Origin: a virus
Lineage: Duplodnaviria > Heunggongvirae > Uroviricota > Caudoviricetes
Virus record (IMG/VR): IMGVR_UViG_3300025133_000025
Direction: 5' to 3' (one strand)
DNA: 43,306 bases
In this document: one piece after another, positions 16,326 through 41,657 of the stretch
Position numbering within the stretch: the first letter of the stretch is position 1
How the letters are laid out: every line of letters begins with the position of its first letter
Position numbers and translations under genes: made by a program
Notes under the pieces: generated by a model
Seen by the model: the letters and a program-made list of their open reading frames with translations, nothing else
What the model was told of the DNA's origin: nothing
Database searches by the model: none

Positions 16326-16372
16326 CCTGCCTCCAATATGTACATTGTATCACGCAGTTAAGGGCGTGGAAC

Positions 16373-16780: not shown

Positions 16781-16791
16781 CTCAACACTCT

Positions 16792-19094: not shown

Positions 19095-19097
19095 GCT

Positions 19098-19352: not shown

Positions 19353-19363
19353 CTTTGTGTCTC

Positions 19364-20269
19364 CTAGTTTTCAAGTGCTGCAACAATTCTGTTGACAACA
19401 CGTTCTGGTGTATAAGTAGCCGCAATCTTGCTTGCAGGCCCAAGATCCCACTCAAAATGACTCTGTATAAGGGCTTCAACTACGCTAACAAAATCTTCGA
19501 TATTATCTGGCTCAAACATTGGAATAGTATCACCCCACACTTCTTGCATCACGGATGTAGCAGCTACAACAGGAACTGCTCCACACAAAACAGCTTCAAT
19601 CGGGATAAGGCCTAGACCCTCGCGCACTGAAGGGGCGAGCACGCACTTGGACGCACAGAGTATGTTCGTCAGTGACATGCTATTCAAAAAGCCTAGGCCG
19701 CGGGCGCAGCCGTACTTTCCTGGCTTAATTGCTGGGCCTGCGACCATATATGTAAAGCTCTTATCATAGATAGTATTCAGCGTTCTTACAGTTTCCTCAG
19801 CTAGTCGAAACCTCTTTGCTTCATCTTCAAGACGACCATAGGAAAAAAAGTCAGCTGTGCCACGTGGAATCTTTCCAGCGATTGCAGAAGCAACCGTGAG
19901 GTTCACGTTGACTGGGTCACCCACTACGTGATATGCTCCTTCATAGCCCAACTCACGAATCTGCTTACCCACAAATTCAGTATTAACAAGAACGCAATCA
20001 GCAAGATCGAGGCGCCACATATGCTCCTTAGCTCTTGCGTCTTCAGCCTCTGCAGCCCAATTCATATCGAGCACTTTAGCTACAACCTTTGTCTTTCCTT
20101 GCAAAATTGCAGTATTGTACTTCACATCAAGCAATGCTTGGGGATCATGGCAGTATACCCAATCGGCTTCACTACTATCTGTAGCAAGCATTCCGCGTTT
20201 ATGCAGCTCAGTAGCCAATGTTGGTACCTGCCCCCAAGGGCCTGCAAACCCTGTTAACTTAATCTTCAT
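19364..20269 (-). CDS. Glycosyltransferase family 4 (GT-B, group 1)
   Basis: LAPSVREGLGLIPIEAVLCGAVPVVAAT matches the GT4 E-x7-E region (PSxxEGFGLxxLEAMAxGxPVIAT). Confidence 0.55.
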   Translation of the reverse strand: MKIKLTGFAGPWGQVPTLATELHKRGMLATDSSEADWVYCHDPQALLDVKYNTAILQGKTKVVAKVLDMNWAAEAEDARAKEHMWRLDLADCVLVNTEFVGKQIRELGYEGAYHVVGDPVNVNLTVASAIAGKIPRGTADFFSYGRLEDEAKRFRLAEETVRTLNTIYDKSFTYMVAGPAIKPGKYGCARGLGFLNSMSLTNILCASKCVLAPSVREGLGLIPIEAVLCGAVPVVAATSVMQEVWGDTIPMFEPDNIEDFVSVVEALIQSHFEWDLGPASKIAATYTPERVVNRIVAALEN

Positions 20270-20838
20270 CTATGATCCTCAAATTTATAACCAAAATATT
20301 CAAAATCTTCTGCAAAGCGGTCATAGATAATTCTTATTAAATCATCACTATCATAGTAGAGGCTATAATGTGGAAGCCTTTTACTCGCGACTTTATTATT
20401 ATTTTTGTGTGGCAACAAAGTTGTTATACCAATCGCTTCACCAGCAATGGCCCAATCAGCTGTAAGGTTTTCAAACCTCCCAATAAAATCTGCTGCTATT
20501 TCTCCACTGTTGTCGCGAAAGAAATCTAGCTGATGTTGCTTCTCTGTTGGATGAACCTGAAAGGTGGTGGTGTGTTTAAATGCATGCACAAAATCATGAA
20601 ATGTATTTTTCTTGTGCAGGCCTTTTCGATTAGCGTACAATGATACAGCGCGATCAAACGGATTCCTAACAAAGCCAAATTTATAAAAGCTTGAAAATTC
20701 TTCAGCAGTTATTTCACTTTGATATTGTTTTAGATCTTTGTGGGGATTTTTCTCATCACCAAGAATTGTGCGTATTGATTGTGATGCTGTTTTTGGAACA
20801 GCTACAAAAATAGTCCTATGCTTATAATTAACGCTCAT
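20266..20838 (-). CDS. Carbohydrate sulfotransferase (Sulfotransfer_2-like)
   Basis: 5'-PSB-like VAVPKTASQSI and 3'-PB-like RNPFDRAVSLY motifs; 190 aa. Confidence 0.55.
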   Translation of the reverse strand: MSVNYKHRTIFVAVPKTASQSIRTILGDEKNPHKDLKQYQSEITAEEFSSFYKFGFVRNPFDRAVSLYANRKGLHKKNTFHDFVHAFKHTTTFQVHPTEKQHQLDFFRDNSGEIAADFIGRFENLTADWAIAGEAIGITTLLPHKNNNKVASKRLPHYSLYYDSDDLIRIIYDRFAEDFEYFGYKFEDHR

Positions 20839-23800: not shown

Positions 23801-24077
23801 ATTCATTTGGAATCGTCACCTGCACAGACACATCAAACACAGCGTTAAACTGGTCTTCTGCTACCTGTGATTTAAGATTCTCCATCTTCCCGCATGCATT
23901 TGCATATCTGCTAAAGGCATGATCAGTGACGGGCAGCCAACTGCATTGTCCCCACGGAATTTGGTCAGCATATATGTCATACTGGCCTGCTTCCATCAAC
24001 GCATCAAGAATCTGGCGGGCGTGAACGCCGTAGCCGCTTGCTGTTAAAACTGGTCCGCGAAAATGCAGTCGTGTCAT
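20835..24077 (-). CDS. Multidomain glycosyltransferase: GT4 + GT9 (ADP-heptose heptosyltransferase-like) + GT2-like
   Basis: 1080 aa. GT4 motif FVSLTHGEGYGLPIIEAAACGLPVIATN. GT9 C-terminal motif AAGIIGDATAFVGIDSFPMHVANHLDVPGVALFG (compare GNDSGPMHLAAALGxPxVALFG). GT2-like segment with VVVVDGISTDGT and DGDEIVHEND (DXD). Confidence 0.65.
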   Translation of the reverse strand: MTRLHFRGPVLTASGYGVHARQILDALMEAGQYDIYADQIPWGQCSWLPVTDHAFSRYANACGKMENLKSQVAEDQFNAVFDVSVQVTIPNEFARRAKFNIGVTAGIETDRIAPEWIPQCNLMDLIVVPSEHSKNVMEQTRYEVYDHKAGKEHEIQITTPIVIVEESVKIDTFFPGAQAESITDELFSTDFNFLVVGQWGVNVNFGQDRKNITNTIKAFYEEFHNDEDVGLVLKIAAIRNSIPDRFIVQARLAELKELLVKEITQQVGHEPKCKLYLVSGFATDKELAALYNHPKIKAFVSLTHGEGYGLPIIEAAACGLPVIATNWSGHLTFLGEAKRRWLPVPVTPVPVPASFVWQGVIPEGVMWAEPSLDDAKIIMRRFYSKASTPTAWAKKLSKEIAENYNPGVLGRKFVDLVQASAHEFFQKNSVEYWVANNILPGDKHKILYTMPQSAGDIFLSTGVIDNLISDTGLAADAVEAYIATKPVFKGVVKDLGYNWIEFQPWMHTPDLTNKIWDEVYTPDLFVQYQGSNWVNRRNKRHLAEEFAAHCGLEPGPLLPRIVTDPLEGFSNASPYVVIHPGYKKGHARHYAYWQDVIDNLRSNGVRVVQIGGPDDPEYRSVEDLRGKTTFTEAAGIIGDATAFVGIDSFPMHVANHLDVPGVALFGSSNPECTGKLIHTEYGSDRLTIIEAVDRKGCAAPCYKDQCVVDKDNPCINNIAAATVYNNVMDIWEPAVSLDVQPDDRVLAVLRKPFEEQFPSISGYTTTFNALKYPFEQSITSMLGFCDEVVVVDGISTDGTWEKLQEAFGNDDRVQLYQKEWDFNEPGIDGQQKAFARALCTGDYLWQMDGDEIVHENDYLKIKKLTKTFSSDFGVLALPVVELWGDTKHLRGDRHLWKWRLSKNDPLITHGINAGARRQAPDGRIYAATGMSDGCEYVNSYTYQSTPTQNFWTADIERLRLTDPIAYESVVQRIIEDMPCVWHYSWADIPAKVKQFRDMWDKQWSCLYLEQEQGKKRFFKDKDWNDVTDEEIAELANTIFRVGHEFAGIGEEVVYPKYDLERMGFKQPEIMTGTKYSRLSR

Positions 24078-25345
24078 ACCTCAAAAACCTCAAGCTGTGT
24101 AGTGCGCTCACCATGTGTAACAACAGTTCGTTGAATTGCTGCATCCCACTTGCTAATCATTGTATCAATATCAAAGCGACGGCGGGCAGAGGCAGCAGCC
24201 TCAATGCCCATTGCTTTAAATTCTTCTGGACCATCATTCCACATATTGTACATGTATTCCATGGCATCACAAATTTGCTCATGCGATACATTATCTTCAA
24301 AGACATATGGAACAGGCTGCGTGCCAACGCAAGAAACTGCGGCAGGCCGTAAAAGAAGACCATTCAGTTTTCCAGTCTCCTTATCAGCTAACTGCTCTGT
24401 CATTCCGCCTGTCATTGTTGCAACAACAGGATTACCCGCCATCAGGCTTTCCAGTACAGACAGGCCAAAGCCTTCGGCATTTGAAATGTTGAATGTCACG
24501 TCAGTGGCGTTAATGAGATCGTTTATCTGCTCGCGGGACACAAAATTTGATGAAAGAATAACATCATCCTGCAATCCCAAGCGCTCTACGACGTTAATAA
24601 GATTTGGTCCCTCTTGGTCAAGAGGATTTGTATGCAAGAAGAGTTGAACCTTTCCCTGCACACCATCGACAGTGTCAATAAATTCACGAAATCCGAAAAG
24701 CAAGTCAGACGCTTTCTTGCGGCGGGCATTGCGGTTCATCCAGAAGATTGTGAATTTATCCTTATTTGGTCCAAGAATTTGAGCCCTGAGCTCACTTCTA
24801 CGTTCATCAGGGAGTCGCTTGAAGAGATCACTGGGTACTGCATGCGGCATGTACTCTGCGCGCTCAGCAAATCCAAGCTCTTCGACGACGGAGTGTGTAA
24901 GCTTGGAGATACACCCGATGAAGTCTGTTGACTCGTAAAAAGGCTTGTTGAATTCGGGAGCCGGGTTGTTATCCCAGACGTGCCAATAAAGGAGTGGTGC
25001 CACTGCTCGTACTTCATTTTCCATCTCCCAAAGCCATACGTAGAAACGTGGATCTGTGATGAACAAAACAGCATCAGGCCTGAAGTTCATGAGCATTGTT
25101 CTGATTACATTGGGGTCGCCGTAATTATTTACGGGATGCACAATCAGATCAGTCCCAAACTCTGGACTCTGGGTCGGTGTATAATCTCGATGAGCCTTCG
25201 CGCCTCCGAGATTCAAAACACTATAGCGTCCTGTTTTTACTAGACCCTCTGCAAGTAATTTTGCTTGCGTTCCAACACCTGAGGGTGATTCAATATGATC
25301 GCTAATTAAAAGCAATCGTGTCTTAGGCTGTTCTGTCATACTCAT
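24074..25345 (-). CDS. Glycosyltransferase family 4
   Basis: FNISNAEGFGLSVLESLMAGNPVVATMTGG matches the GT4 E-x7-E motif; 423 aa. Confidence 0.65.
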   Translation of the reverse strand: MSMTEQPKTRLLLISDHIESPSGVGTQAKLLAEGLVKTGRYSVLNLGGAKAHRDYTPTQSPEFGTDLIVHPVNNYGDPNVIRTMLMNFRPDAVLFITDPRFYVWLWEMENEVRAVAPLLYWHVWDNNPAPEFNKPFYESTDFIGCISKLTHSVVEELGFAERAEYMPHAVPSDLFKRLPDERRSELRAQILGPNKDKFTIFWMNRNARRKKASDLLFGFREFIDTVDGVQGKVQLFLHTNPLDQEGPNLINVVERLGLQDDVILSSNFVSREQINDLINATDVTFNISNAEGFGLSVLESLMAGNPVVATMTGGMTEQLADKETGKLNGLLLRPAAVSCVGTQPVPYVFEDNVSHEQICDAMEYMYNMWNDGPEEFKAMGIEAAASARRRFDIDTMISKWDAAIQRTVVTHGERTTQLEVFEV

Positions 25346-31144: not shown

Positions 31145-31294
31145 GTCCTGAAACGGAGCAATTGCTGGCCATTTTAAAAGAAATTGCCAGTACGGGTGAT
31201 TTACAAGAAGTTTATGATATTATGCCTGACTGCGGAGCTCCGCTGGACGCGGCGGTATGGAATTGGATTGAGGCAGGTTGCCCAGACGCTGATT
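31141..31294 (+). CDS. Possible small ORF (GTG start)
   Basis: GTGA overlap with the preceding stop; 51 aa ending at the TAG at 31292-31294, convergent with the kinase operon end. Confidence 0.25.
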
Positions 31295-32600
31295 AGTGAA
31301 AGCGAAACAGGCCAAGGTCAGCTGCGACAATTGCTCTGTCTGTCGGGCGAATAAGAACATTACCTCTATGCAAATCAACGAAGCGCATTCCATGTTTTTC
31401 GTACATGTAGTGAAGTGCATTCACAAGACCTGAGAGTCCTGACTTCTCCGCAGTTTTTTTCTGCATTTTCAAGATTGCATCCTGCGTTTCTGGATCTTTA
31501 CTTCCTTTAAAGTCTCTAGCAAAATACGCGCCAGCCTTATCAGCAATGCCATGTGCCTTCCAAGTTTGATGCTTGTCGTAACCCTTTGGCACAATCCCAG
31601 TTCGGACGCCAATCTTAACAGAGGCGTCCAGCCACTTTTTAAATTTAGGTATACCCTGTTCATTTTGCGACAGATCAGCAAATTTCCGCATATGCTGCGC
31701 GAAAGTCTCGGCGACCTTGTCACTAAGATTTAATGATTTGTAAAGCGCCTTAAGGATGATTGCAACCTTATCATCATCTTTCATTGCAATCCATAATAGA
31801 TCTTCTTTTGCTTCGCCATGCGGATTCTTTGGCCCCTTTGGGGCTTTTGGAATTTCCCATGGCTTTTCAATGCGTTTCAAATATTCACCAGCCTTGACAG
31901 CACCTGGAAGTTCATCAAGCTTCTCCATTAGAACAATGGGAAATTCTTTTCCAGTTCGCCTGATAAGCCAGACGCCATAAATCTTCGGAAAGTGTTTAGC
32001 GACATCTGGTGGCAATTGTTCATACAGGTTAGCAATGGTCTTATACGGTTCGATGTTGTCAGCACGGTTCGATGTGGGAATTTTTAATGCCATGGCCTGG
32101 CCGTTGTCAGGCATAAATTCAAAGACTGTGCCAAATGCACCGATGCCAAGAAAGGCGCCGACATCACCGGGCGGAAGAATCTTTTGCATGTGCCCTGAAA
32201 AAGCTTCGCCCTTTTCTTGACTAAAATATGTAGATGACGCACGCTTCAAGAAATCGTTTGAAAGATTAGCAGGGTTTTTCTTTGACGGCGTTTCAAGATC
32301 CGGATCGACGTAGATGGCGACTGCAGTCGGTTCCTGACCATGCTTTGTATCCAGGCTTCCACCCCTCCGCCGCCTCCTTCCGCCTACAGGCACTGTAGCT
32401 GGAAGTTCCTCTGCATTGATTGGACCGTGTGATGTAGGCGGCGTCTCAGGCCAGTCTTCCTTTTCTGCAACAAGGCCTGAATATTCCTTAACAACAGTTA
32501 CTGATATACTGTCAACATCATCATCTTCCTGATCATAGATATTTTCAATTACGCGATTGTAATTTTCAAGTGCGAGGAGCTGTGTTATTGTTGGAAACAT
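31293..32600 (-). CDS. Protein-kinase-like fold protein K1 (truncated ePK-like; ends 6 aa after the DLG)
   Basis: Gly-loop LGIGAFGTVFEF, AMALKI (VAIK-like Lys), catalytic loop VDLHRGNVLI, Mg-binding VAADLGLFRFH at the extreme C-terminus. Confidence 0.6.
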   Translation of the reverse strand: MFPTITQLLALENYNRVIENIYDQEDDDVDSISVTVVKEYSGLVAEKEDWPETPPTSHGPINAEELPATVPVGGRRRRRGGSLDTKHGQEPTAVAIYVDPDLETPSKKNPANLSNDFLKRASSTYFSQEKGEAFSGHMQKILPPGDVGAFLGIGAFGTVFEFMPDNGQAMALKIPTSNRADNIEPYKTIANLYEQLPPDVAKHFPKIYGVWLIRRTGKEFPIVLMEKLDELPGAVKAGEYLKRIEKPWEIPKAPKGPKNPHGEAKEDLLWIAMKDDDKVAIILKALYKSLNLSDKVAETFAQHMRKFADLSQNEQGIPKFKKWLDASVKIGVRTGIVPKGYDKHQTWKAHGIADKAGAYFARDFKGSKDPETQDAILKMQKKTAEKSGLSGLVNALHYMYEKHGMRFVDLHRGNVLIRPTDRAIVAADLGLFRFH

Positions 32601-33349
32601 TAGCGGAAAAGTCCAATATCTGAGACAACAAGCGATTTGTCAGTCGGGCGCACCATTATATTGCCGTGGTGCAGATCGTCAGGTTCGATATTCTGAAAAT
32701 CGATTAAATCTTCCATGGCATGATAGAACGTCGCCACACCTATGAACTCTGCAGTTGCAGCGTCAACATTTGACGTAAGGCTATAATCTGGTAGTTTGCC
32801 GGTTATAATCGCTTTACGCAGTAATTTCTCCATTTTGATCGGGAGAGGTTCAAGATATTCCATAAGGGTAATGACAAGACCTGAGTCAGGAATAAGCCAC
32901 GCTGCAGAAGGTCGACCTGATTCAGGAATAAGCCACGCAGCATAGATTTTCGGGAGGTGGCGGGCAGTTCCAGGCTTCGACGTGCCCTTTGCACGGGCCA
33001 CAAGTTTGTAAGCATCCGGCTCATCCTCACTGATTTTCAACGCCATCCTCGGCCCATGATCGGGAACGAAGTCCCAAACAACACCATAGGACCCCTGTCC
33101 AAGTACATCCTTGATTGTTCCTGCAGGCAAAAGTTGCTCCAGAGCAGACCTTACGTCAGCAGTGAAAATGCTATCGCGCGGAATACCATCAACATGCCCG
33201 GGTTCTGCAAGGGTCGGATCAACATAGATTTCTTTATATGCAAGATTTTGCACATGACCTGTTCGGGCACCTTGTTGTTCAAGCAATTGAACCATTGTAG
33301 GAAGCAGATCAATCATATTTGTAGAAGTTACCGATGTCAGCAACAACAA
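32600..33349 (-). CDS. Protein-kinase-like fold protein K2 (paralog; ends right after the DIG)
   Basis: LGQGSYGVVWDF, RMALKI, HLPKIYAAW, ITLMEYLEPLP, DDLHHGNIMVRPTD, VVSDIGLFR-stop. Confidence 0.6.
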   Translation of the reverse strand: MLLLTSVTSTNMIDLLPTMVQLLEQQGARTGHVQNLAYKEIYVDPTLAEPGHVDGIPRDSIFTADVRSALEQLLPAGTIKDVLGQGSYGVVWDFVPDHGPRMALKISEDEPDAYKLVARAKGTSKPGTARHLPKIYAAWLIPESGRPSAAWLIPDSGLVITLMEYLEPLPIKMEKLLRKAIITGKLPDYSLTSNVDAATAEFIGVATFYHAMEDLIDFQNIEPDDLHHGNIMVRPTDKSLVVSDIGLFR

Positions 33350-34283
33350 GGTGCCCGTCAGATTTACGAACCATTACATTATCATCATGCAAGTCCTGCC
33401 AGCTTATGCCATATCTTTCATGAATCTCTCTCAGCGCTTCGTAAAATGGCAGGATACCGAGAGATTCAAGTTTATCGTCACCTTCATCACCCAGGTTCTT
33501 CCAATGCGCACGAGATGTTGGAGTTATAGTGAGCATCGCCCGGTTATAATCAAACACATCAAGTGAGTTGTGCATTCTTGGCCCGGGCCTAATTCCAACC
33601 TCCTTGGCGGAATCAATAATCGCATCACGCAATCGAGCAGCCTGAGCATCATCCTCAAAATCATGGGGAGCGTTGAGGTTGTATGTTCGGCGAAGTCCTG
33701 CCACAGCGTGAGGCAATCGCTCTACCAATTCCGGCCGTGTTTCTGTATCAAGCAGGCCGAGGGTGATTCGCATAAGCCGGCCAACACGTTTATCACTTTG
33801 CACAAATTCTTCCCATGACATCCTATTTTCAGGATCCCCGCGGACCATGGCTGTCTTAATATTCTTTGGAAGCGGCGACAGGATTTCCATAAGCGTTATA
33901 ACAGTTTCTGTATCGACAGACCAAATGCCATAGATTTTCGGGAGGTGGCGAATCAGTTCCCGCGGCGCTGTGTCGTAAATCTTTTGAATTTCTTCGTAGG
34001 CCTCCGGCTCATCCTCACTGATTTTCAATGCCATCATAGGTCCATCGTCAGGCTTGAAACGGTAGACAGTACCAAATGAACCAGCGCCGAGGCGGGTCTC
34101 TACAACCCCGGGTGGCAGCACGTCAGCAAGGGGCGCCGGGGCGAGCCGATGTCCCCGAAGAAGACGAAGATCAACAGATCCTGGACCCTTGTTAATTTCC
34201 AGTTCTGGTGACACAAAGATTTCCTTTGTTGAAGCTGCCTTTGCAGCTTCAACAACCAGGGTTTTCATTGTGGGAAATGTCAT
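33309..34283 (-). CDS. Protein-kinase-like fold protein K3 (paralog)
   Basis: LGAGSFGTVYRF (canonical GxGxFGxV), MMALKI, HLPKIYGIW, ITLMEILSPLP, QDLHDDNVMV, VVADIGNFYKYD-stop. Confidence 0.6.
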   Translation of the reverse strand: MTFPTMKTLVVEAAKAASTKEIFVSPELEINKGPGSVDLRLLRGHRLAPAPLADVLPPGVVETRLGAGSFGTVYRFKPDDGPMMALKISEDEPEAYEEIQKIYDTAPRELIRHLPKIYGIWSVDTETVITLMEILSPLPKNIKTAMVRGDPENRMSWEEFVQSDKRVGRLMRITLGLLDTETRPELVERLPHAVAGLRRTYNLNAPHDFEDDAQAARLRDAIIDSAKEVGIRPGPRMHNSLDVFDYNRAMLTITPTSRAHWKNLGDEGDDKLESLGILPFYEALREIHERYGISWQDLHDDNVMVRKSDGHLVVADIGNFYKYD

Positions 34284-35326
34284 ACAAATTCACCGATGTC
34301 AGACACAACAACGTCGTTTGTTCCAGCGCGCATCATGATGTTATCTGTTTTAAGGTCATGCCAATCAACATTATGCTTACTTGATATATATTCGAGCGTC
34401 GCGTAAAATGTACGAAGACCTGTTTTGGAGAGATAGTCAAAGTGCCTTTCCATTTCCCTTGAATCCGTTGGTTTCGATGTAGGAAGCATAACAGCTGTGG
34501 CAGCAGCAGAAGTCCAGGTGTGGGACATGAACTGCGTTAAGCGTTTAATCTCACTCGCATGCTCGGGATGTAGTTGAACAAGGAGATTGGCGATGAGTCC
34601 GGCGAAGGCCTCGGCTTGGGCCTGTGTTGGAGGTGTTTCTGAAAATCTCCAGCGTTTTCGAATTTGCGGAATGAGCTCATCTGCAACGACAGCATAGAGG
34701 TTTGGAATGATGCTGTGTAGTCGAAAAATTCCCTCGTAAACGTATGCTGCAATATTTGCATCATCAGCAATCCATTTTGACCAGTCAGGTTCATGACCAT
34801 GATATTCTTCATATTCAAAGAATCCGTCAAGGGCGTTCTGAATGGAGATGGGGAGTTTGCTGAGATGTTCCATCAAAATTACTGTTAGGGTTGTATTCTG
34901 CAGGGCCAATTCCCAGACGCCGAAAATCTTTGGGAGGTGCCTGCTGTGCAGTTCAGGGAGTTGCCCACGAATGGCATATACGTCGTCGTATGGTTTGGTA
35001 TCGTCGTCACCGATTTTCACAACCATAAGCGGTCCGAAATCCGGTTTAAATTCAAAAACAGAGCTGTGCGCTCCAGCACCTACATATTCACCCACATCAC
35101 CTGGTGGTAAAACGTTTTGTAAGGTCTGGAACACTATTTTATCAACCCTGGGAACACCCAGGTGGTCAGTGGCCCGATCGGCTGTGCGAAGTGCGTCCTG
35201 GATGCTAACAGTGGATTTCGTGCCAGCTGGACGGATCTCGTCGCGGATAATTTCCTTGACCGCAATTTTGTTGTTGTCACCCCTGGGCGACAGTTCTGTC
35301 AACAGGTTATGCATTGTGGGGAGCAT
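34280..35326 (-). CDS. Protein-kinase-like fold protein K4 (paralog; start uncertain)
   Basis: VGAGAHSSVFEF, LMVVKI, HLPKIFGVW, VILMEHLSKLP, HDLKTDNIMM (compare HRDLKPEN), VVVSDIGEFV-stop. The start was set at the Met (MLPTMHN) at 35326; the open frame continues to 35806, but that part translates tandem DNA repeats. Confidence 0.5.
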   Translation of the reverse strand: MLPTMHNLLTELSPRGDNNKIAVKEIIRDEIRPAGTKSTVSIQDALRTADRATDHLGVPRVDKIVFQTLQNVLPPGDVGEYVGAGAHSSVFEFKPDFGPLMVVKIGDDDTKPYDDVYAIRGQLPELHSRHLPKIFGVWELALQNTTLTVILMEHLSKLPISIQNALDGFFEYEEYHGHEPDWSKWIADDANIAAYVYEGIFRLHSIIPNLYAVVADELIPQIRKRWRFSETPPTQAQAEAFAGLIANLLVQLHPEHASEIKRLTQFMSHTWTSAAATAVMLPTSKPTDSREMERHFDYLSKTGLRTFYATLEYISSKHNVDWHDLKTDNIMMRAGTNDVVVSDIGEFV

Positions 35327-35402
35327 AACATATATAGTGTCCACGCTGCCATCTATGCCATGGTGTTTCGTGGCAACGATTTTTTCCAGAAATTTTTGTG
35401 CT

Positions 35403-35486
35403 GGCAGGGCTGTTCTGGTGGTGCAATCCTGGCAGAGCTGTTCTGGTGGTGCAATCCTGGCAGAGCTGTTCTGGTGGTGCAAATTC
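35403..35486. repeat. 28-bp tandem direct repeat x3 (GGCAGAGCTGTTCTGGTGGTGCAATCCT)
   Basis: Three head-to-tail copies; copy 1 has 1 mismatch and copy 3 diverges in its last 5 nt. Confidence 0.85.
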
Positions 35487-35698
35487 TCGAGAAGTTGTGC
35501 AGAGGCGTTGCGCGGCTTCGAGGCCTTTCTAAATCTCCAACAACCTATCTGAGGCCTTTCCGCAGGCCCTCGCCGGCCCGAGCTGGGTTGCGCCGACGGG
35601 CGGCTAGAAGGTCCCAACCTGGTATGGAAAGGCCCTGAGGGTGGTGTGGGGCAGGCCTTTCCATGGCGCCAGCACCAAGGCATGCCGTGCCGGCGAGG

Positions 35699-35806
35699 GC
35701 CTATCTTTCCGCAGGGCCTCCGACCACAAGATAGGTCTATCTTTCCGCAGGGCCTCCGACCACAAGATAGGCCTATCTTTCCGCAGGGCCTCCGACCACC
35801 AACCAC
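35699..35806. repeat. 36-bp tandem direct repeat x3 carrying the CTTTCCGCAG promoter upstream box
   Basis: GCCTATCTTTCCGCAGGGCCTCCGACCACAAGATAG x3. A fourth partial unit continues into promoter P1. Further degenerate copies of GGCCTTTCC(G/A) lie at 35554 and 35656. Confidence 0.85.
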
Positions 35807-35814
35807 GGTCTAGC

Positions 35815-35843
35815 TTTCCGCAGCACCACCGCCTTGGTATATT
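35815..35843 (+). promoter_or_regulatory. Cassette promoter P1: TTTCCG-N17-TATATT with TGG upstream (extended -10)
   Basis: gcTTTCCGcagcaccaccgcctTGGTATATT; 17-nt spacer; about 65 nt upstream of the ATG at 35910. Confidence 0.6.
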
Positions 35844-35909
35844 AATAACATAAGGGGCACGGACCAACCGGCAATAAAGCTGGAAGGCCGGCCCCCTGGA
35901 GATACTATC

Positions 35910-36299
35910 ATGGCCAAGTGGAACCCCAGCTCGAAGGTGAACCAGAGCCACCTCCTGACCATCCTGCGCCGCGGCGGCAACGAGTACCTCGACATCGTCG
36001 AGCGCCTCTCCCACCGGGCCCAGAAGCCCAACGGTCCTGACGGCCTGAACGTGACCATCATCCGGGATGCGATCGAGCAGGGCTACCTCGCTACGGATGC
36101 TGAGGCCATCCTGTTCCCCTCCGAGGAGAACGTGAACAAGGCCAAGGTGGCCGCGGCCGAGGATGCCAAGGCGACGATGATCGACAACCTCCTGGAGCTC
36201 GGGCAGCAGGGAGCGGTCAACGCGATGATCCAGGCGGGGACGGTCAGCGCGGAGCTGGTCGCCGGCATCGAGGCCAGCCGGGCCGCCGAAGAGGCCTAG
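35910..36299 (+). CDS. MAK-family small protein, paralog 1 (unknown function)
   Basis: 129 aa; MAKWNPSSKVNQSH N-terminus shared with 3 other cassette ORFs; SD GGAGA 9 nt upstream; about 65% GC. Confidence 0.65.
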   Translation: MAKWNPSSKVNQSHLLTILRRGGNEYLDIVERLSHRAQKPNGPDGLNVTIIRDAIEQGYLATDAEAILFPSEENVNKAKVAAAEDAKATMIDNLLELGQQGAVNAMIQAGTVSAELVAGIEASRAAEEA

Positions 36300-36307
36300 G
36301 CCTGACA

Positions 36308-36336
36308 GGGCCGGCGGGGGCAACACCCGCCGGCCC
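36308..36336 (+). terminator. GC-rich hairpin (11-bp stem) after cassette 1
   Basis: GGGCCGGCGGG-gcaacac-CCCGCCGGCCC; no U-tract, so this may be an intrinsic-terminator variant or a processing/recombination site. Confidence 0.4.
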
Positions 36337-36393
36337 ACCCGTCTGGAGCTGGTCTCACCGGTCCTCAACCTCTCGGCTCCTCCACCCGGAGGG

Positions 36394-36413
36394 CCGAAGG
36401 TCCGGACCTTCGG
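36394..36413. repeat. Perfect 20-bp palindrome CCGAAGGTCCGGACCTTCGG
   Basis: Exact inverted repeat with no loop, in the inter-cassette spacer. Confidence 0.8.
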
Positions 36414-36469
36414 AGCCTAGGCTTTCCGCAGCCCTGCTGCCTAGGCCTTACAGCGTGGGCTGAGCTGGC

Positions 36470-36498
36470 TTTCCGCGGCACCACTGAAATGGTACAAT
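36470..36498 (+). promoter_or_regulatory. Cassette promoter P2: TTTCCG-N17-TACAAT with TGG upstream
   Basis: ggcTTTCCGcggcaccactgaaaTGGTACAAT; a near-duplicate of P3 including the downstream AAGGACGG(A/T)GGCCA. Confidence 0.6.
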
Positions 36499-36556
36499 AT
36501 AATTACAAGGACGGAGGCCATCATACAGATGGGCTGCCGATCCGACTGGAGCCACC

Positions 36557-36967
36557 ATGGCCAAGAAGAACCGCTGGAACCCCTCCTCCAAGGTCAACTG
36601 CAACCACGTCACGGGCATGCTCGCCAAGGGCACGGCGGAGTACAAGGACTGGGTCGGCCGGGCCTTCTCCGTCCCCGCCGACGCCGACGCCGAGTACTTC
36701 GAGGACATCATCCGCGAGGGCCACGAGGACGGCTACCTCACCGATGAGAATGTGGACACCCTGCTGGGTACGGGCCCCTCGACGAAGGACGTCCAGGCCG
36801 CCGCCGCCGGCAACGCCCAGGCCCAGATGATCTCCGGGCTGGCCAACGCCGGGCAGCACAGCGCGGTGGCCTCCATGATCGGCACGACCGTCTCGCAGGA
36901 CCAGGTCGACCAGGTCTACGAGGCGCTCAACCTGGACTTCGCCGCCTTGACCGCGCCGGAGGCCTAG
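36557..36967 (+). CDS. MAK-family small protein, paralog 2
   Basis: 136 aa; MAKKNRWNPSSKVNCNHVTGMLAKG...; the overlapping +/- ORFs at 36489-37024 are rejected as GC artefacts. Confidence 0.65.
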   Translation: MAKKNRWNPSSKVNCNHVTGMLAKGTAEYKDWVGRAFSVPADADAEYFEDIIREGHEDGYLTDENVDTLLGTGPSTKDVQAAAAGNAQAQMISGLANAGQHSAVASMIGTTVSQDQVDQVYEALNLDFAALTAPEA

Positions 36968-37049
36968 CCGGCCCAACCCTTCGCCCCGAGCACCATCGAA
37001 GCCATCGGCTACTAGCACCACCACAGTCGGCCTAGCAGGGAGGAGACTC

Positions 37050-37088
37050 TCTGTTAGGCCGGCCTAACAGCGACTGAGCAGCTCAGTC
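37050..37088. repeat. Two adjacent perfect palindromes (CTGTTAGGCCGGCCTAACAG; CGACTGAGC-a-GCTCAGTCG)
   Basis: A 20-bp exact palindrome followed directly by a 19-bp one, in the spacer after cassette 2. Confidence 0.8.
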
Positions 37089-37097
37089 GATTTAAGG

Positions 37098-37126
37098 TTT
37101 CCGCCGCACCACCGACTTGGTATAAT
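37098..37126 (+). promoter_or_regulatory. Cassette promoter P3: TTTCCG-N17-TATAAT with TGG upstream
   Basis: ggTTTCCGccgcaccaccgactTGGTATAAT. Confidence 0.6.
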
Positions 37127-37187
37127 TTAGGTATAAGGACGGTGGCCACCAAAACGGTGAATCACTGCTCCCGTTGGAGAATGAGAC

Positions 37188-37622
37188 ATGGCCAAGAAGA
37201 ACCGCTGGAATCCTGCCTCGCGTGTCAACTGCAACCACCTCACGGGGATGCTCCTGAAGGGCGACGACGCGTACCGGGACTTCGTCTCCCGCGCCTTCTC
37301 CGCCGCCCCCGAGGAGTTCGAGGCGATCGTCCAGGAGGGCCTCGACTGGGGGTACTTCACCTCGGACAACCGGGACGCCTTGCTCGGCACCGGCCCCTCC
37401 ACGGCCGCGATCTCGGAAGCCGCGGCGGGCAACGCCCAGGCGACGATGATCTCCGGCCTCGCCAACGCCGGCCAGCACAGCGCGGTGGCCTCCCTCGTCG
37501 CCGCCGGGACCTGCACCCAGGACCAGGTCGACCAGGTGTACGGCGCCTTGGAGCTGGACTACGCGGCCCTGATCGCCCCGCCGGCCCCCAAGGCGCCCAA
37601 GGCCAAGAAGGCCGCCAAGTAG
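37188..37622 (+). CDS. MAK-family small protein, paralog 3
   Basis: 144 aa; MAKKNRWNPASRVNCNHLTGMLLKG...; SD GGAGA upstream; Lys-rich C-terminal tail PKAPKAKKAAK. Confidence 0.65.
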   Translation: MAKKNRWNPASRVNCNHLTGMLLKGDDAYRDFVSRAFSAAPEEFEAIVQEGLDWGYFTSDNRDALLGTGPSTAAISEAAAGNAQATMISGLANAGQHSAVASLVAAGTCTQDQVDQVYGALELDYAALIAPPAPKAPKAKKAAK

Positions 37623-37642
37623 CCTAGCCGGCTGCCACTGAC

Positions 37643-37667
37643 GGACCGGCCCCTCCTGGGCCGGTCC
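37643..37667 (+). terminator. GC-rich hairpin (10-bp stem) after cassette 3
   Basis: GGACCGGCCC-ctcct-GGGCCGGTCC; followed by GGCCTTACAGCG and GGCCTAACAGCG half-site copies. Confidence 0.4.
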
Positions 37668-37767
37668 ACCGGCTGGGCCTTACAGCGTGAGCTGCGCGAA
37701 CGCTGATAGTCCTCTCTGAGCCGGCCTAACAGCGCGGGCTGAGCCCGCCGTCACAGTGCCACGAGGC

Positions 37768-37796
37768 TTTCCGCAGCAGGCCAACCATGGTATAAT
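37768..37796 (+). promoter_or_regulatory. Cassette promoter P4: TTTCCG-N17-TATAAT with TGG upstream
   Basis: ggcTTTCCGcagcaggccaaccaTGGTATAAT. Confidence 0.6.
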
Positions 37797-37829
37797 TTAG
37801 GTACCGGAATTGACCGGCTGGAGAACCCC

Positions 37830-38531
37830 ATGATCGATGCACTTACAATCTTCAACGCTTCCACGGATCGGCGGACCTACTGGCGCCTGAATCGTGAGGC
37901 GGGCGCTGCTACCCTGGATGAGGCGATCGCCTTGACCTGGGAGGACTTCTACCCGTACGAGCACATGCCCCAGGATGACGCCATCAACATGGATGGCATG
38001 GACGACATCTTCGAGGTCGGTGGACCGGAGAACATGGAGATCGTGACCCACGGCGGCGGGTGGTTCACCGTGGAGTACAAGAACGGTTGCTCCCAGGAGG
38101 AGGACACCCGCGACCACCCGGAGGAGTGGAACCAGTGGGAACAGGTCACCCGCCTCGTCAGCCAGGACTACCTCACCTTGGAGCGTGGGTTCACCGTCCT
38201 GGACGATACCCCGGCCGGCCACGGCGACGAGTTCGGTCGGATCTACTGGGTGATCGGCGACACCACGGAGCCGGGGACGGTCGATCGGAAGCCCAAGGTG
38301 CTCACCGGTGATGAGGTCATCGAGCGGTCGATCAAGGAGGGCATCCGGTCCGACCTCGAGTTGGAACAGCAGGTCCTGCCGCCGGTCGATCACCGGTGGA
38401 ACGACATGATGATGCAGAGCGCCGCCCTGGACATCCTGGCTGGTGTGACCATGGCCAGCATCCGCTACCACAGCTACGACGCCTGGGAGGATGTGGAGAT
38501 GCTGACCCGCCACTTCCACGGCAAGATCTAG
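37830..38531 (+). CDS. Acidic hypothetical protein (233 aa) in the cassette array
   Basis: SD GGAGAA upstream; D/E/W-rich; no family recognised; the antisense ORF 37797-38555 is rejected. Confidence 0.6.
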   Translation: MIDALTIFNASTDRRTYWRLNREAGAATLDEAIALTWEDFYPYEHMPQDDAINMDGMDDIFEVGGPENMEIVTHGGGWFTVEYKNGCSQEEDTRDHPEEWNQWEQVTRLVSQDYLTLERGFTVLDDTPAGHGDEFGRIYWVIGDTTEPGTVDRKPKVLTGDEVIERSIKEGIRSDLELEQQVLPPVDHRWNDMMMQSAALDILAGVTMASIRYHSYDAWEDVEMLTRHFHGKI

Positions 38532-38576
38532 AAGCCTCACCAGCTGGCTCAGCACCTGCGGCCTGGGGTAGCCTGG

Positions 38577-38598
38577 GCCGTAAGGCCGGCCTTACGGC
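38577..38598. repeat. Perfect 22-bp palindrome GCCGTAAGGCCGGCCTTACGGC
   Basis: Exact inverted repeat centred on GGCCGGCC, in the spacer after cassette 4. Confidence 0.8.
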
Positions 38599-38653
38599 GA
38601 AGAACAGCTCAGCCCCTCCCTTTCCTCCATACTTGGAAGCACAGACCGGCATG

Positions 38654-38682
38654 TTTCCGATGCATGACCGCCATGGTATAAT
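38654..38682 (+). promoter_or_regulatory. Cassette promoter P5: TTTCCG-N17-TATAAT with TGG upstream
   Basis: gTTTCCGatgcatgaccgccaTGGTATAATatattAGGAACCCC; a near-duplicate of P8. Confidence 0.6.
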
Positions 38683-38763
38683 ATATTAGGAACCCCGGCC
38701 GGTTGAATCAATGCCATGGCAGATGGCTGTCATGGCAACTGGCCACCTACTACAGGAAGTGAC

Positions 38764-39591
38764 ATGAACTGGAATAGCATCGCAAATGACCTTGACATCT
38801 GGAACAGTGGTGGGAAGATGAAGGCGACGATCTCGCTCTTCTTGAACAGCCCCGGCATCAGCCACGCCCTGTACATCATCTTCCTCGCTGTCTACGGTGG
38901 CTGGAACATGTTGTCGACCGCCGCGCTCCGCCAGGAGCCTGGCCCGTCGGCGTCCCAGAAGTACGAGTTGACCGACTACGTCAACAAGGACACCATCCTC
39001 AGCATCGTCAACGACGCCCGTCAGAAGGCCTGGAGCGATCTGGAGATCAGTGGTATCATGCCCGAGTGGAAGGTGGGCGGCATGGCGGAGCCGGCCTGCG
39101 CGATCCGGCCGGGCGAGGACAATCCAACCCTTGTCTTCAACAAGATCCAGTTCATCAAGCAGGTGCGTGAGGCCCACGGCTTGGGACTGAAGGAAGCGAA
39201 GAAGGCTGTGGAAGACATGTTGGTGCAGGCTTCCGGGCTCGTCGCCTTCCGTGGAGTCCGTGGGAAGCTCATTGAGCACATGCCGACGACTTTCCTCCAC
39301 ATCACGAACGTCCACATCAATCTCGACGAGCTCGTCTCCCTGCCCATCAACTATCGGCCGCATGCCTACGAAGGAGAGCGCAGGTCGCGTGACAACTCGA
39401 CCAGCGATGACACCTTCTACACGGTGGGGTGGTACTGGGAGAACGTGCTCTCCTTCGAGAACAAGCGACTCTTCCGGAGCTTGGACCACTTCCGAAGCAC
39501 GTCCATCGCAGTGAAGCGGCGCGCCCAGTACCTCAACCACGAGGGTGCCTGGGTTTACGTCGATGATGTCGCCACCGAAATCCTTGCCTGA
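38764..39591 (+). CDS. Membrane-anchored protein with a ribosomal bL12 (L7/L12) C-terminal-domain-like segment
   Basis: The start was chosen at MNWNS (SD AGGAAG 5 nt upstream); the longer frame starts at 38716. TM helix [45 protein letters not shown] aligns to E. coli bL12 [26 protein letters not shown] (GLGLKEAK identical). Confidence 0.55.
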   Translation: [275 protein letters not shown]

Positions 39592-39613
39592 GTGAAGGGG
39601 TTCCTCGGCGAGG

Positions 39614-39653
39614 GGCCCTGGGCCTGCTGTCTTCGGATGGCAGGCCCAGGGCC
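39614..39653 (+). terminator. GC-rich hairpin (14-bp stem) after cassette 5
   Basis: GGCCCTGGGCCTGC-tgtcttcggatg-GCAGGCCCAGGGCC. Confidence 0.45.
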
Positions 39654-39693
39654 TATTAGCGCTTCGCGCCGAAGGCCCCAAGACGCAGCTGGC

Positions 39694-39722
39694 TTTCCGC
39701 CGATCTACCGTGTTTGTATAAT
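39694..39722 (+). promoter_or_regulatory. Cassette promoter P6: TTTCCG-N17-TATAAT (TG adjacent)
   Basis: ggcTTTCCGccgatctaccgtgtttgTATAAT; downstream ATAAGGGGCGC resembles the P1 leader. Confidence 0.55.
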
Positions 39723-39743
39723 AATACTATAAGGGGCGCAGGT

Positions 39744-39759
39744 GCTGAAATATTTCAGC
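39744..39759. promoter_or_regulatory. Perfect 16-bp palindrome GCTGAAATATTTCAGC in the P6 leader (operator-like or leader hairpin)
   Basis: Exact inverted repeat about 15-30 nt downstream of the predicted TSS and 25 nt upstream of the SD; a second CTGAAA...TTTCAG palindrome lies at 40265. Confidence 0.45.
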
Positions 39760-39794
39760 AGTTGTTATAAACAGCCCCGACATGGAGAGAAGAC

Positions 39795-40190
39795 ATGGCT
39801 AAGAACCGCTGGAACCCTTCGAGCAAGGTCAACTGCAATCACATCACCGGGATGATCGCCAAGGGTGACGCCGAGTACAAGGACTGGGTCGCCCGGATCT
39901 TCGGCTCGAACAACGACACCTTCGCCGACCTGGTGACCGAGGGCAAGACCGCGGGCTACCTCACCGCCGAGAACTCCAACTTCCTGCTGGGCACGTCGGC
40001 CAGCACCCCGGCTGTGAAGGCGGCCGCCGCGGCCGACGCCAAGCGCAGCATGGTCATCGGCCTGCTGGGTGCGGGACAGGACACGGCGGTCGATTCGCTG
40101 ATCCAGTCCGGGCAGGTGGACCAGGAGTTCGTCGACAGCATCCGCGCGGAAATCGTGGATGCTGAGGAAGCTCGCCGCTCGTCGAAGTAG
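39795..40190 (+). CDS. MAK-family small protein, paralog 4
   Basis: 131 aa; MAKNRWNPSSKVNCNHITGMIAKGDAEYKDWVARIFG...; SD GGAGAG upstream. Confidence 0.65.
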   Translation: MAKNRWNPSSKVNCNHITGMIAKGDAEYKDWVARIFGSNNDTFADLVTEGKTAGYLTAENSNFLLGTSASTPAVKAAAAADAKRSMVIGLLGAGQDTAVDSLIQSGQVDQEFVDSIRAEIVDAEEARRSSK

Positions 40191-40198
40191 AGAAACGC

Positions 40199-40226
40199 CA
40201 GGCCGGGGGCTTCGGTCCCCGGCCGT
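40199..40226 (+). terminator. Hairpin GGCCGGGGGC-TTCG-GTCCCCGGCC (UUCG-type loop) after cassette 6
   Basis: 8-10-bp GC stem immediately after the stop; a CCGTACGG palindrome and a GCTGCTTTT run follow. Confidence 0.5.
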
Positions 40227-41238
40227 ACGGCGCTGCTTTTCAAAGCTCTTCGGCGCAGCCAGCGCTGAAAGACCGGTCTTTCAGAGAAAGCAGCTGAGCC
40301 CGCAGTCCTGGCCACAGCTCCCTGCCTGGCAACATTCCGACGCTGTCCAGCTTTCGGCAGCCTACATCACCTTCCGATGCGGCTCAGCACTGCAATGTGC
40401 TGAAAAGACTGCAATTTTGCTGCCCACTGCCCTGCCGATGCTGAATGTGAGATTCGAGGCATCTGCTCTTCGCTGCAGCAATCATATGAATACTATGCCC
40501 ATCCCGGTTTTTCACTATACCCGCCGGGATAGAAAGCAGGCTGGCCCATGCGCTGGCCTCGGCAGCCCATCGATGCAGCGGAAGCAGACGGTGTGGCGCT
40601 ATGATATCATTCCCAGCAAAACGCCACCAGACCTGCCGTGCCGCGACGCTCTGCGCTCTCCCTTCGCAACTCTGCTCCCGGCTTCTGGCGCTGCGCTCTG
40701 TAGTTGCGGGCACCACTCCACCCATTCTTGTTAGGCTTGAAAACCTTATCAGGCCATCTCGTCAGCTCCCATTTTGTGAGTTTGCATATGAATCAGTAGC
40801 GCCAGCTGTTCTTCCCTATTTGCAATGTGAAGAGCTGCTCAGTGTTGTCCGAGCTGTAGACATTTTGTTGTGTGATGTTAAAGGCTTAGGGCTCTGCTGC
40901 TGTCCCTGCAGCGTTGCTCCACCCCGCAGCGCCAAAGCAGGGAAACAGCATATGCTGATATCATAAAGCACACAGAGCTTACAGCACCAGCAGAGAAACG
41001 AGGTTTAGGAGTTGGGAGTTGTGGTATAGAACCTATCCTATTGGAGTCTATTGGTTTATCTGTTAGTTAGTTGTTGGTTCTGATACCATCAAAGGCACGT
41101 TGTATTGTAGCAAGAGTATATGAATGAGGCTGCCCAGCATTTCCGGCTGACCAAATTGGTAGGCTGCAGGGCAAGCCGCGTGAGTTCGGACTGTTGGATT
41201 GCAGTCCTGATGATATCTTCTGGCAACATCCACAGTAA
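40227..41238. other. About 1-kb apparently non-coding region with palindromes (candidate structured RNA or decayed cassettes)
   Basis: Only low-complexity R/S/P/C-rich ORFs on either strand (40159-40734, 40601-40966, 40384-40725). Contains the CTGAAAGACCGGTCTTTCAG palindrome and several short hairpins. GC is intermediate. Confidence 0.4.
40265..40284. repeat. Perfect 20-bp palindrome CTGAAAGACCGGTCTTTCAG
   Basis: Exact inverted repeat; shares CTGAAA/TTTCAG arms with the 39744 palindrome. Confidence 0.8.
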
Positions 41239-41266
41239 TTTCCGTGTATGAATTCACTGTTATAAA
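41239..41266 (+). promoter_or_regulatory. Cassette promoter P7: TTTCCG-N16-TATAAA with TGT upstream
   Basis: aaTTTCCGtgtatgaattcacTGTTATAAAat; AT-rich context. Confidence 0.5.
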
Positions 41267-41304
41267 ATAGAAATAGGTGAGAATGTTCCACCGAGGAGAT
41301 AAGC

Positions 41305-41604
41305 ATGAGCGATAACAGGGACTTCCCAACGATTCGTCGCCTGATTGGTGTCATTGAGGACGCATCTTCTGCTGAGCAGATTATCCTCAACAACAGGGTT
41401 TTGGGCGATCACCTCGGCGGAATTATCCGCATTCGGAATGAGGGCGTGATCAGGAATCTCTACTTTGGCAACGCATCCTCCGAAGGCGCCCTCGATGCTT
41501 TGATTGCGCTTGTTGAAGCTATTCGATCCGAAGCTGCCCACGAATTGGCTGGGCAGGGTGTGGATGTCAGGCCGGTTTCAGATGCAACGAAGATTTCCGA
41601 CTAA
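41305..41604 (+). CDS. Hypothetical protein (99 aa)
   Basis: SD GAGGAG 7 nt upstream; the stop overlaps the -35 box of P8. Confidence 0.55.
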   Translation: MSDNRDFPTIRRLIGVIEDASSAEQIILNNRVLGDHLGGIIRIRNEGVIRNLYFGNASSEGALDALIALVEAIRSEAAHELAGQGVDVRPVSDATKISD

Positions 41605-41622
41605 CAACCGCCATGGTATAAT
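41594..41622 (+). promoter_or_regulatory. Cassette promoter P8: TTTCCG-N17-TATAAT with TGG upstream
   Basis: aTTTCCGactaacaaccgccaTGGTATAATatacctAGGAACCCCC; a duplicate of the P5 module. Confidence 0.6.
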
Positions 41623-41657
41623 ATACCTAGGAACCCCCAACCCAAGCGAGTACTAAC

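Follow-up and report, generated by a model that had tools for sequence, protein, structure and literature searches.

The divergent control region

The DNA analyzed here is a 43,306-nucleotide (nt) stretch from a tailed virus of the Caudoviricetes (IMG/VR record IMGVR_UViG_3300025133_000025), referred to below as the window, and the element under study is an array of 36-base-pair (bp) tandem repeats lying immediately upstream of a promoter, P1. The array is located in a 583-bp divergent intergenic region at the left edge of a GC-rich island (guanine plus cytosine, GC, 58-67% between 35.5 and 41 kb against ~42% in the backbone). A first-pass annotation had assigned the array to a divergent control region between a kinase operon and a cassette array, and the gene starts agreed with this: the region extends from an ATG at 35326 on the minus strand to the ATG of the gene A1 at 35910 on the plus strand. 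The minus-strand gene encodes a kinase-like protein of 348 amino acids (aa). On the plus strand, the island consists of successive small ORFan genes, all of them with a promoter of their own and with GC-rich hairpins. The ORFan family of A1 has four paralogues in the window (35910-36299, 36557-36967, 37188-37622 and 39795-40190) that start with MAK(K)NRWNPSSKVN, and it was represented by only 11 clusters among 5.8 billion proteins. Protein searches recovered genes of this A family in only two other lineages, L011/L012 (~52% aa identity) and L132-L137 (~51%), which are called L011 and L132 below. Both have GC-rich islands with promoters of the same class as those of the window.

The window belongs to the genome of a large marine myovirus that has not been cultured. 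The baseplate-wedge protein encoded in it was 31-32% identical to the counterparts in Microcystis phage Mel-JY01 and in some Flavobacterium phages and large myoviruses, the other window proteins include glycosyltransferases, an exonuclease and a sigma region-2 protein, and marine metagenomes yielded related contigs of 170-179 kb.

Structure of the 36-bp array

Tandem Repeats Finder (TRF) reported a period of 36 bp with 3.4 copies (90% matches, score 195) at 35701-35823, in agreement with the threefold repeat described in the first-pass annotation. The units occupy 35698-35733, 35734-35769 and 35770-35805, and the second and third are 97% and 89% identical to the first. Their sequence had been given as GCTTTCCGCAG; the units actually read TCTTTCCGCAG, which is a minor correction. 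Each can be written as TTTCCG CAGGGCCT CCG ACCACA AGATAG, with the CCG 8 nt downstream of the TTTCCG. No unique spacers of the kind that separate the repeats of a CRISPR (clustered regularly interspaced short palindromic repeats) array were present, as the 36-bp units abut directly.

The TTTCCG hexamers start at 35706, 35742 and 35778 in the units and at 35815 in P1, at spacings of 36, 36 and 37 bp. The array was thus found to run into P1 as a fourth copy, as had been proposed: the first 16-18 nt of this copy (GGTCTAGCTTTCCGCAG) match the units, after which the sequence diverges into the -10 region. Common to unit and promoter are GGYCTAKCTTTCCGCAG and the bipartite TTTCCG-N8-CCG. The TGGTATAAT of the promoters is replaced in the units by AAGATAGG, which sits where the -10 element would be, and the earlier observation that the box is present and TATAAT missing was borne out. 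The units are therefore copies of the upstream recognition half of an island promoter.

An inverted repeat, CTATCT...AGATAG, had been said to flank every unit. It was found as CTATCTT...AAGATAG, with CCTATCTT and AAGATAGG arms, in units 1 and 2 but not in unit 3, which ends in CCAACCACGG. The junction of adjacent units forms a 16-bp palindrome, perfect at 35764-35779 (AAGATAGGCCTATCTT) and with one mismatch at 35728-35743.

The motif CTTTCCGCAG, with at most one mismatch, was observed 14 times in the window against 3.07 ± 1.73 in shuffled sequences, and all seven exact matches lie on the plus strand within 35556-37776. For TTTCCG-N8-CCG, eight occurrences were observed against 0.26 expected; every one is a plus-strand match that falls within the array or a promoter. 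Chance is excluded by the excess of the two motifs. A 70-aa open reading frame (ORF) with a GTG start (35641-35853), which contains a 12-residue repeat, was considered as a sign that the array is coding and was rejected: a repeat period of 36 bp stays in frame trivially, the local GC content is expected to give long ORFs, L011 does not conserve the upstream part, and L132 has no units.

Table 1. Coordinates of the array, promoters, genes and box copies (window positions unless another lineage is named)
Feature	Position	Strand	Remarks
Three tandem 36-bp units, half promoters without a -10	35698-35805	+	TRF and repeat search
Promoter P1	35806-35843	+	GGTCTAGC lead-in; TTTCCG 35815-35820; CCG 35829-35831; extended -10 TG 35835-36; TATATT 35838-35843
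Promoter P2	36470-36498	+	TTTCCG-N17-TACAAT
Distal box copies	35522-35562	+	GGCCTTTCT (35522-35530) and GGCCTTTCCG (35553-35562); positions conserved in L011 and L132
Conserved inverted-repeat element	35564-35702		Arms 35564-35580 and 35686-35702; core GCCCTCGCCGGC/GCCGGCGAGGGC invariant in three lineages
Second tandem array, 28 bp x 2.9	35401-35484	+	Unit CTGGCAGAGCTGTTCTGGTGGTGCAATC; adjoins the minus-strand operon
Kinase-like protein, 348 aa	34280-35326	-	First gene of the divergent operon; HxDLKxDN motif; weak Pkinase matches in neighbouring genes
A1, ORFan paralogue	35910-36299	+	First gene of the GC-rich island
Box-only copy TTTCCGCAGCCCTGCTG	36423-36439	+	47 bp upstream of P2
Box-only copy, degenerate	38620		34 bp upstream of P5
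Box-only copy, L011	946		36 bp upstream of a promoter
Box-only copy, L011	3457		47 bp upstream of a promoter
Box-only copy, L132	2124		45 bp upstream of a promoter
Box-only copy, L132	3979		34 bp upstream of a promoter

The island promoters

In P1, a 17-nt spacer separates TTTCCG from TATATT and a TG lies one base upstream of the -10 (Table 1). Transcription from P1 probably starts near 35850, and the promoter is conserved in L011 and L132. The window has seven such promoters (P1, P2 and so on), with TTTCCG starts at 35815, 36470, 37098, 37768, 38654, 39694 and 41594, which share TTTCCG-N8-CCG-N6-TATAAT, a TGG before the -10 and 17-bp spacing; each of the recurring P2-class promoters from 37098 onwards precedes a small plus-strand gene. 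Fifteen further promoters of this TTTCCG/TATAAT class were found in the two distant lineages (seven in L011 and eight in L132). TTTCCG was invariant in 22/22 promoters of the three lineages while the 8-nt segment of the spacer varied, which suggests that the hexamer is read specifically, at the -35 position with strict 17-bp spacing. The sigma-70 scan did not pick up these promoters, which combine a consensus -10 and an extended TG with the invariant TTTCCG as -35. A literature search on TTTCCG promoters returned nothing relevant.

A second promoter-like motif, AACTGCGTG(G/A)TA(T/C)AAT, was observed upstream of two minus-strand gene blocks (26652 and 16352) and may mark another transcription class.

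Copy number among near-identical contigs

The comparison drew on seven contigs, each from another sample, with 99.3-100% identity to the window along 1.3-18 kb; for the unit counts of 3, 2 or 1, the compared stretches measure 6-18 kb. Three 36-bp units were present in the window, L002 and L006, two in L005, and one in L001 and L008. In L004, a deletion of 149 nt (35572-35720) joins the distal box (35557) to unit 1, and the exact stretch shared at this junction is ~10 nt long. The 28-bp array of the same intergenic region (Table 1) had three copies in the window, L001 and L004 and two in L002 and L008, in combinations that differ from the 36-bp counts. Over 16.4 kb, L001 differed from the window by six single-nucleotide polymorphisms (SNPs), three of which lie inside the 28-bp array, and by a 72-nt, two-unit deletion. 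Over 11 kb, L002 differed only by a 28-nt indel and two SNPs, all in the 28-bp array. Almost all variation is therefore concentrated in the two arrays.

With identical head-to-tail units whose number differs between near-identical genomes in short-read assemblies, the 36-bp array is a variable-number tandem repeat. In the first-pass annotation, copy number varying freely among otherwise identical isolates, with no expression phenotype, had been named as an outcome that would speak against binding sites. The first half of this was found, since the array varied between 3, 2 and 1 units in genomes a few SNPs apart.

The variation, though not the array itself, could also be an assembly artefact, in which short-read assemblers collapsed or expanded a fixed three-unit array. 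All alleles were taken from short-read contigs, and L003 begins inside the array, a typical contig break at a repeat. However, three contigs with names of the type 'k141_' still disagree (3, 1 and 1 units), and these names point to a final k-mer of 141, longer than the 108-bp array. Independent combinations of the 36-bp and 28-bp counts are likewise not what an artefact predicts, and the ~10 identical bases joined in L004 are probably too short for an artefact of the de Bruijn graph. We consider an assembly artefact to be quite improbable.

Comparison with two distant lineages

L132 keeps synteny with the window, its first minus-strand gene being 33% identical to the 348-aa protein. The conserved blocks in the control-region alignment were ~35503-35549, GCCCTCGCCGGC...GCCGGCGAGGGC (invariant), GCGCCGACGGGC..TAGAAGG, the GGAAAGGCC motifs and P1. 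The variable part is the stretch from the inverted repeat to P1, which holds 1-3 units in the clade of the window, two degenerate TATCCG copies at 65-74-bp spacing and a hairpin in L011, and that hairpin only, with no unit, in L132. In both the window and L011, unit 1 abuts the outer inverted repeat (GCGAGGG...ATCT[T/A]TCCGCA), so that a unit probably predates their split. From these alignments the array is a polymorphic, lineage-specific add-on to a conserved control region. Its length is not constrained, and the whole array is dispensable in L132.

Box-only copies were also found upstream of other promoters (Table 1). The copy before P2 (45-47 bp upstream) was conserved across the three lineages to the same degree as the promoter. 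When the A1-A2 spacers of the three lineages were aligned, this copy had 8+8 invariant columns in two 12-column blocks (16/24), against 2-4/12 in its flanks, and the P2 box block had 7/12. The blastn homology between L011 and the window begins exactly at box-only copies. CTTTCC was enriched in the control region of all three lineages (≤4/1000 dinucleotide shuffles reached the observed count), and even in single-unit alleles 4-5 TTTCC-type motifs were observed in the control region against 0.3-0.45 expected.

Contigs L138-L140, which come from other phages, were 99.3% identical to the window from 42035 to its end and unrelated to the left of 42035 (the break corresponds to their position 9560), which places both the island and the kinase operon within a region that is mosaic and replaceable. 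The GC step was observed in L132 as well, where GC rises from 0.49 to 0.65 (L132 1500-6800; in the window from ~47% to ~65% at 35500-41000). As the same step occurs in this distant lineage, the high GC content of the island has been maintained over a long divergence and is not a trace of recent transfer. In L008, a segment of ~70 nt in the A2-P3 spacer (36979-37050) is swapped for unrelated sequence, and the rest is ~99.3-99.7% identical to the window.

Database searches beyond these lineages were negative. Neither positions 33000-39000 (megablast) nor an A-family protein (tblastn) had a match among 50,697 phage records, and the 36-bp unit, the conserved inverted-repeat element and the kinase-like protein were all absent from IMG/VR. 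The promoter pattern gave three single matches in IMG/VR, which is chance level, and in the metagenome scan the matches listed comprised single chance matches and one known contig.

Neighbouring elements of the control region

The conserved inverted-repeat element next to the array encloses ~105 nt with GGCCTTTCC at 35627-35635 on the minus strand and at 35654-35662 on the plus strand, and it lies at ~100-246 in L011 and at ~1376-1521 in L132. The outer arms of 12-13 bp do not vary across the three lineages, even though the flanking kinase-like gene shares only 33% identity. The GGCCTTTCC motifs are kept, but their orientation differs (-,+ in the window; +,- in L011; -,- in L132), a pattern that is easier to reconcile with turnover of sites bound by protein than with conservation of an RNA helix. 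RNAalifold did give a consensus for the element, with a few compensatory pairs, and no Rfam family matched it. The element may constitute the control region's core.

The first-pass annotation had listed two further, degenerate copies of the box at 35554 and 35656 as part of the array. Both exist (35553-35562 and 35654-35662), but they are not decayed array units and belong to the separate conserved inverted-repeat element. Two other copies had been missed, GGCCTTTCT at 35522 and the minus-strand GGCCTTTCC at 35627-35635. Like the units, GGCCTTTCCG is preceded by CCTATCT. The second tandem array is polymorphic independently of the first, with three or two 28-bp copies and SNPs shuffled between its units, and it is absent from L132.

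The palindromic arms could also point to a hairpin acting as RNA or as single-stranded DNA, the array being transcribed, for instance, in a long leader of the minus-strand operon or as a small RNA, with one hairpin of 8-bp stem per unit. Such a hairpin could form from the CCTATCTT/AAGATAGG arms of units 1 and 2, the DNA fold of 35695-35850 had a z-score of -2.98, the neighbouring element (35562-35704) folds well on the minus strand (z-score -4.76), and by eye a weak sigma-70-like match is seen on the minus strand back-to-back with P1, although the promoter scan did not pick it up. We nevertheless regard this explanation as improbable: no Rfam family was matched in the window even at an E-value of 5, the scan detected no promoter that would transcribe the array, and the single-unit alleles lack the right arm and therefore form no hairpin. 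In addition, the motifs of the neighbouring element switch orientation between lineages, and L132, in which the two inner motif copies are direct, seems to lack the inner hairpin that the window and L011 have.

Possible role of the array

We propose that a half promoter has been amplified in tandem, with variable copy number, to give the 36-bp array, and that the units are likely non-productive sites for the factor that reads the box and modulate P1. Taken as a whole, we give this proposal an even chance. Its evolutionary and anatomical part is well supported by what was observed directly, namely the anatomy of the array, the homology of unit and promoter, the variation in copy number, the occurrence of the array in some lineages but not in others, and the fact that other box-only copies are conserved.

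The part that we infer comprises protein binding, an effect on expression and a mechanism of slippage or recombination. Each unit would carry the upstream element specific to the class, TTTCCG at -35 with CCG 8 nt downstream, and a unit without the TGGTATAAT extended -10 would on its own be unable to support open-complex formation. Units could be gained and lost by slipped-strand mispairing or by unequal homologous recombination between identical repeats, and recombination may also take place between dispersed boxes. The reader of the box could be region 4 of the host sigma factor, or an activator. The units are predicted to be, most likely, genuine non-productive binding sites for it, because the box is invariant, other box-only copies are conserved and the motif is enriched. 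As auxiliary or decoy sites they would modulate P1 without being required for it.

The cluster of sites for a box-reading factor that the first-pass annotation envisaged is therefore plausible in so far as the units are -10-less copies of an invariant box, enriched and conserved near P2; against it, the array is polymorphic and absent from L132. Less remains of the suggestion that it might act as a cooperative array or enhancer. The box spacings of 34, 36, 37, 45, 47 and 65-74 bp show no conserved helical phasing, which argues against the geometry of a stereospecific activator; a role as decoy or reservoir, or no role at all (neutrality), would agree better with it.

Besides the missing phasing, several results weigh against our proposal. 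The alleles come from MEGAHIT, JGI (Joint Genome Institute) or Logan short-read contigs, which can collapse tandem repeats. The copies in L011 read TATCCG, so the box is not strictly kept. In the three-lineage alignment, the array columns had 0 invariant of 12 per block against 6-9/12 in the flanks; given these zero invariant columns and an L132 without units, the array could be selectively neutral. A DNA-binding protein was not found, the neighbouring proteins all being ORFans. The sigma-like protein at 12361-13116, which had been put forward as a candidate reader, matched region 2 only, with no detectable region 4 that would read a -35. The AlphaFold2 model of the A family was all-helical and confident (predicted local distance difference test, pLDDT, 86) and had no fold match in the PDB by Foldseek (best E-value 3.3). 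The A-family proteins were accordingly dropped as candidate DNA binders, as a fold without a PDB match gives no support for this.

The array might thus be a neutral by-product, a tolerated product of slippage or unequal crossover between promoter-derived repeats that has no regulatory role and whose boxes were inherited from the duplicated promoter. This would agree with the presence of 1-3 copies in near-identical genomes, the absence from L132 and degenerate TATCCG state in L011, the unrelated 28-bp array in the same spacer that is also lineage-specific and polymorphic, the position of the island in a mosaic region (L138-L140 break at 42035) and the lack of helical phasing. Yet every contig of the clade keeps at least one unit, L011 has a positionally equivalent copy, the box-only copies before P2-type promoters are conserved islands in diverged spacers, and TTTCC motifs are enriched in every lineage. 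On balance we take neutrality to be a serious explanation, though an unlikely one.

If the units do bind the box reader, the contigs would represent a natural allele series with 0, 1, 2 or 3 decoy or auxiliary sites before one promoter in otherwise identical viral genomes. Such a series could serve directly as an experiment on the tuning of a phage promoter by the number of sites, and it would be a rare instance of a virus in which repeat number varies at a control region. A neutral array would simply mark high recombination in a replaceable genome region. Independent of function, TTTCCG-N8-CCG-N6-TATAAT is a new promoter signature for a group of uncultured marine phages, a conserved control element lies beside the array, and the variation in 16 kb falls nearly entirely in two intergenic arrays.

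Other features of the window

Residues 142-167 of a 291-aa island protein (38716-39591) matched the C-terminal domain of ribosomal protein L7/L12 with 32.1 bits (Pfam cut-off 25.9). Further along the island, 1.47 kb (40191-41657) contains no convincing gene, just a 99-aa ORF (41305-41604) and a dubious 191-aa call, which is unusually long non-coding DNA for a phage. The minus-strand operon (31293-35326) encodes four proteins with weak protein-kinase signatures. One of them faintly matched the T7 gp0.7-type kinase family, which is annotated as inhibiting transcription of the host.

A sugar-nucleotide and glycosyltransferase block occupies 14370-25345, with a PfkB-type kinase, a cytidylyltransferase and several glycosyltransferases, one of them a multi-domain protein of 1080 aa. 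The PfkB-like gene had no relative in GTDB genomes. Within this block, the GC content rises locally to 53-56% at 16-19 kb, and between minus-strand ORFs, at 19214-19281, there is a tandem repeat with a 21-bp unit in 3.2 copies (97% matches). The window contains no tRNA genes.

Comparison with known systems

In iteron plasmids (plasmids P1, pSC101 and R6K), arrays of direct repeats overlap the rep promoters, and extra repeat clusters are thought to titrate the binding protein. The 36-bp array is similar in that its repeats are direct and the last of them overlaps the -35 region of the promoter of the gene that follows. The 36-bp and 28-bp arrays could accordingly be initiator-binding repeats of a replication origin, with P1 autoregulated by the initiator. 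This would fit the presence of two arrays of direct repeats plus a large inverted repeat within a single divergent spacer, and the overlap of the last repeat with the promoter. However, the periods of 36 and 28 bp lie outside the 17-22 bp of iterons, which form three or more direct repeats at about two helical turns (the first period being 36 rather than ~22 bp), no DnaA box (TTATCCACA, at most one mismatch) was found in 35300-35950, and the only AT-rich run, a potential unwinding element, lies at 35376-35398, ~300 nt from the 36-bp array and not adjoining it. No initiator homologue is encoded next to the arrays, A1 and the 348-aa protein being without a Rep-like match, there is no turning point of GC skew here, and the arrays are absent from L132 although the region is otherwise conserved, and are thus dispensable in a related lineage. 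An origin is, in our view, highly improbable.

The closest resemblance in gene arrangement is to the PeSL (promoter-early stem-loop) cassettes of T4-type phages (Arbiol et al., 2010, PMC2839356; Comeau et al., 2014, PMC4122927). PeSL cassettes lie in hyperplastic regions of T4-type myoviruses, combine a stem-loop (terminator) with an early promoter directly behind it, and are excised as mini-circles during infection (PMC2839356). Common to both is that small ORFans of a large myovirus, located where the genome is variable, are each preceded by a GC-rich stem-loop and a promoter; all island spacers of the window have GC-rich hairpins followed by TTTCCG-N17-TATAAT. In both, repeats serve as recombination points for indels and replacements between close relatives. 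Here this was seen as the 149-nt deletion of L004, the gain and loss of units, the replacement in L008 and promoters that are paired with different genes in L011 and L132, and the mosaic break of L138-L140 likewise shows the region to be replaceable. PeSL promoters differ in matching the sigma-70 consensus of the host, whereas the promoters found here have an invariant non-consensus TTTCCG and a conserved spacer CCG. The -10-less tandem copies are a further difference; the words 'tandem' and 'duplication' occur nowhere in PMC2839356, so that such copies are apparently not described there. Moreover, the island lies 20 GC points above the phage backbone.

In the middle promoters of phage T4, the MotA box is a phage-specific box that replaces the -35, is joined with a host-type (extended) -10, is centred at -30 and defines a transcription class. 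Tandem box-only arrays are not known from T4. The promoters of the island are alike in that a conserved box that is not of the sigma-70 type stands in for the -35, alongside a host-type -10, here in 22 promoters of three lineages (for the MotA box and sigma appropriation, see the review PMC2988021). They differ in the placement of the box, TTTCCG being at -35 with strict 17-bp spacing and not centred at -30. Homologues of the activator MotA or the co-activator AsiA were not found among the window proteins scanned against Pfam or PHROGs, while ~130 kb of the genome lies outside the window.

In bacterial contingency loci, such as the TAAA tract upstream of Neisseria nadA, repeat number varies by slippage before a promoter and switches the expression of the neighbouring gene. 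The 36-bp units are longer than the 1-7 bp of such loci, carry the promoter's own recognition element and occur in a virus. The likeness lies in identical tandem units immediately upstream of a promoter, the number of which differs in near-identical genomes. A more far-reaching and doubtful possibility is that TTTCCG-N8-CCG is the site of a novel transcription factor or sigma-remodelling system dedicated to the persistently GC-rich island in a family of uncultured marine myoviruses, and that the two variable arrays, on either side of the conserved inverted-repeat element, form a viral 'contingency' control region in which, within a phage population, changing numbers of decoys would diversify the expression of the island and the kinase operon.

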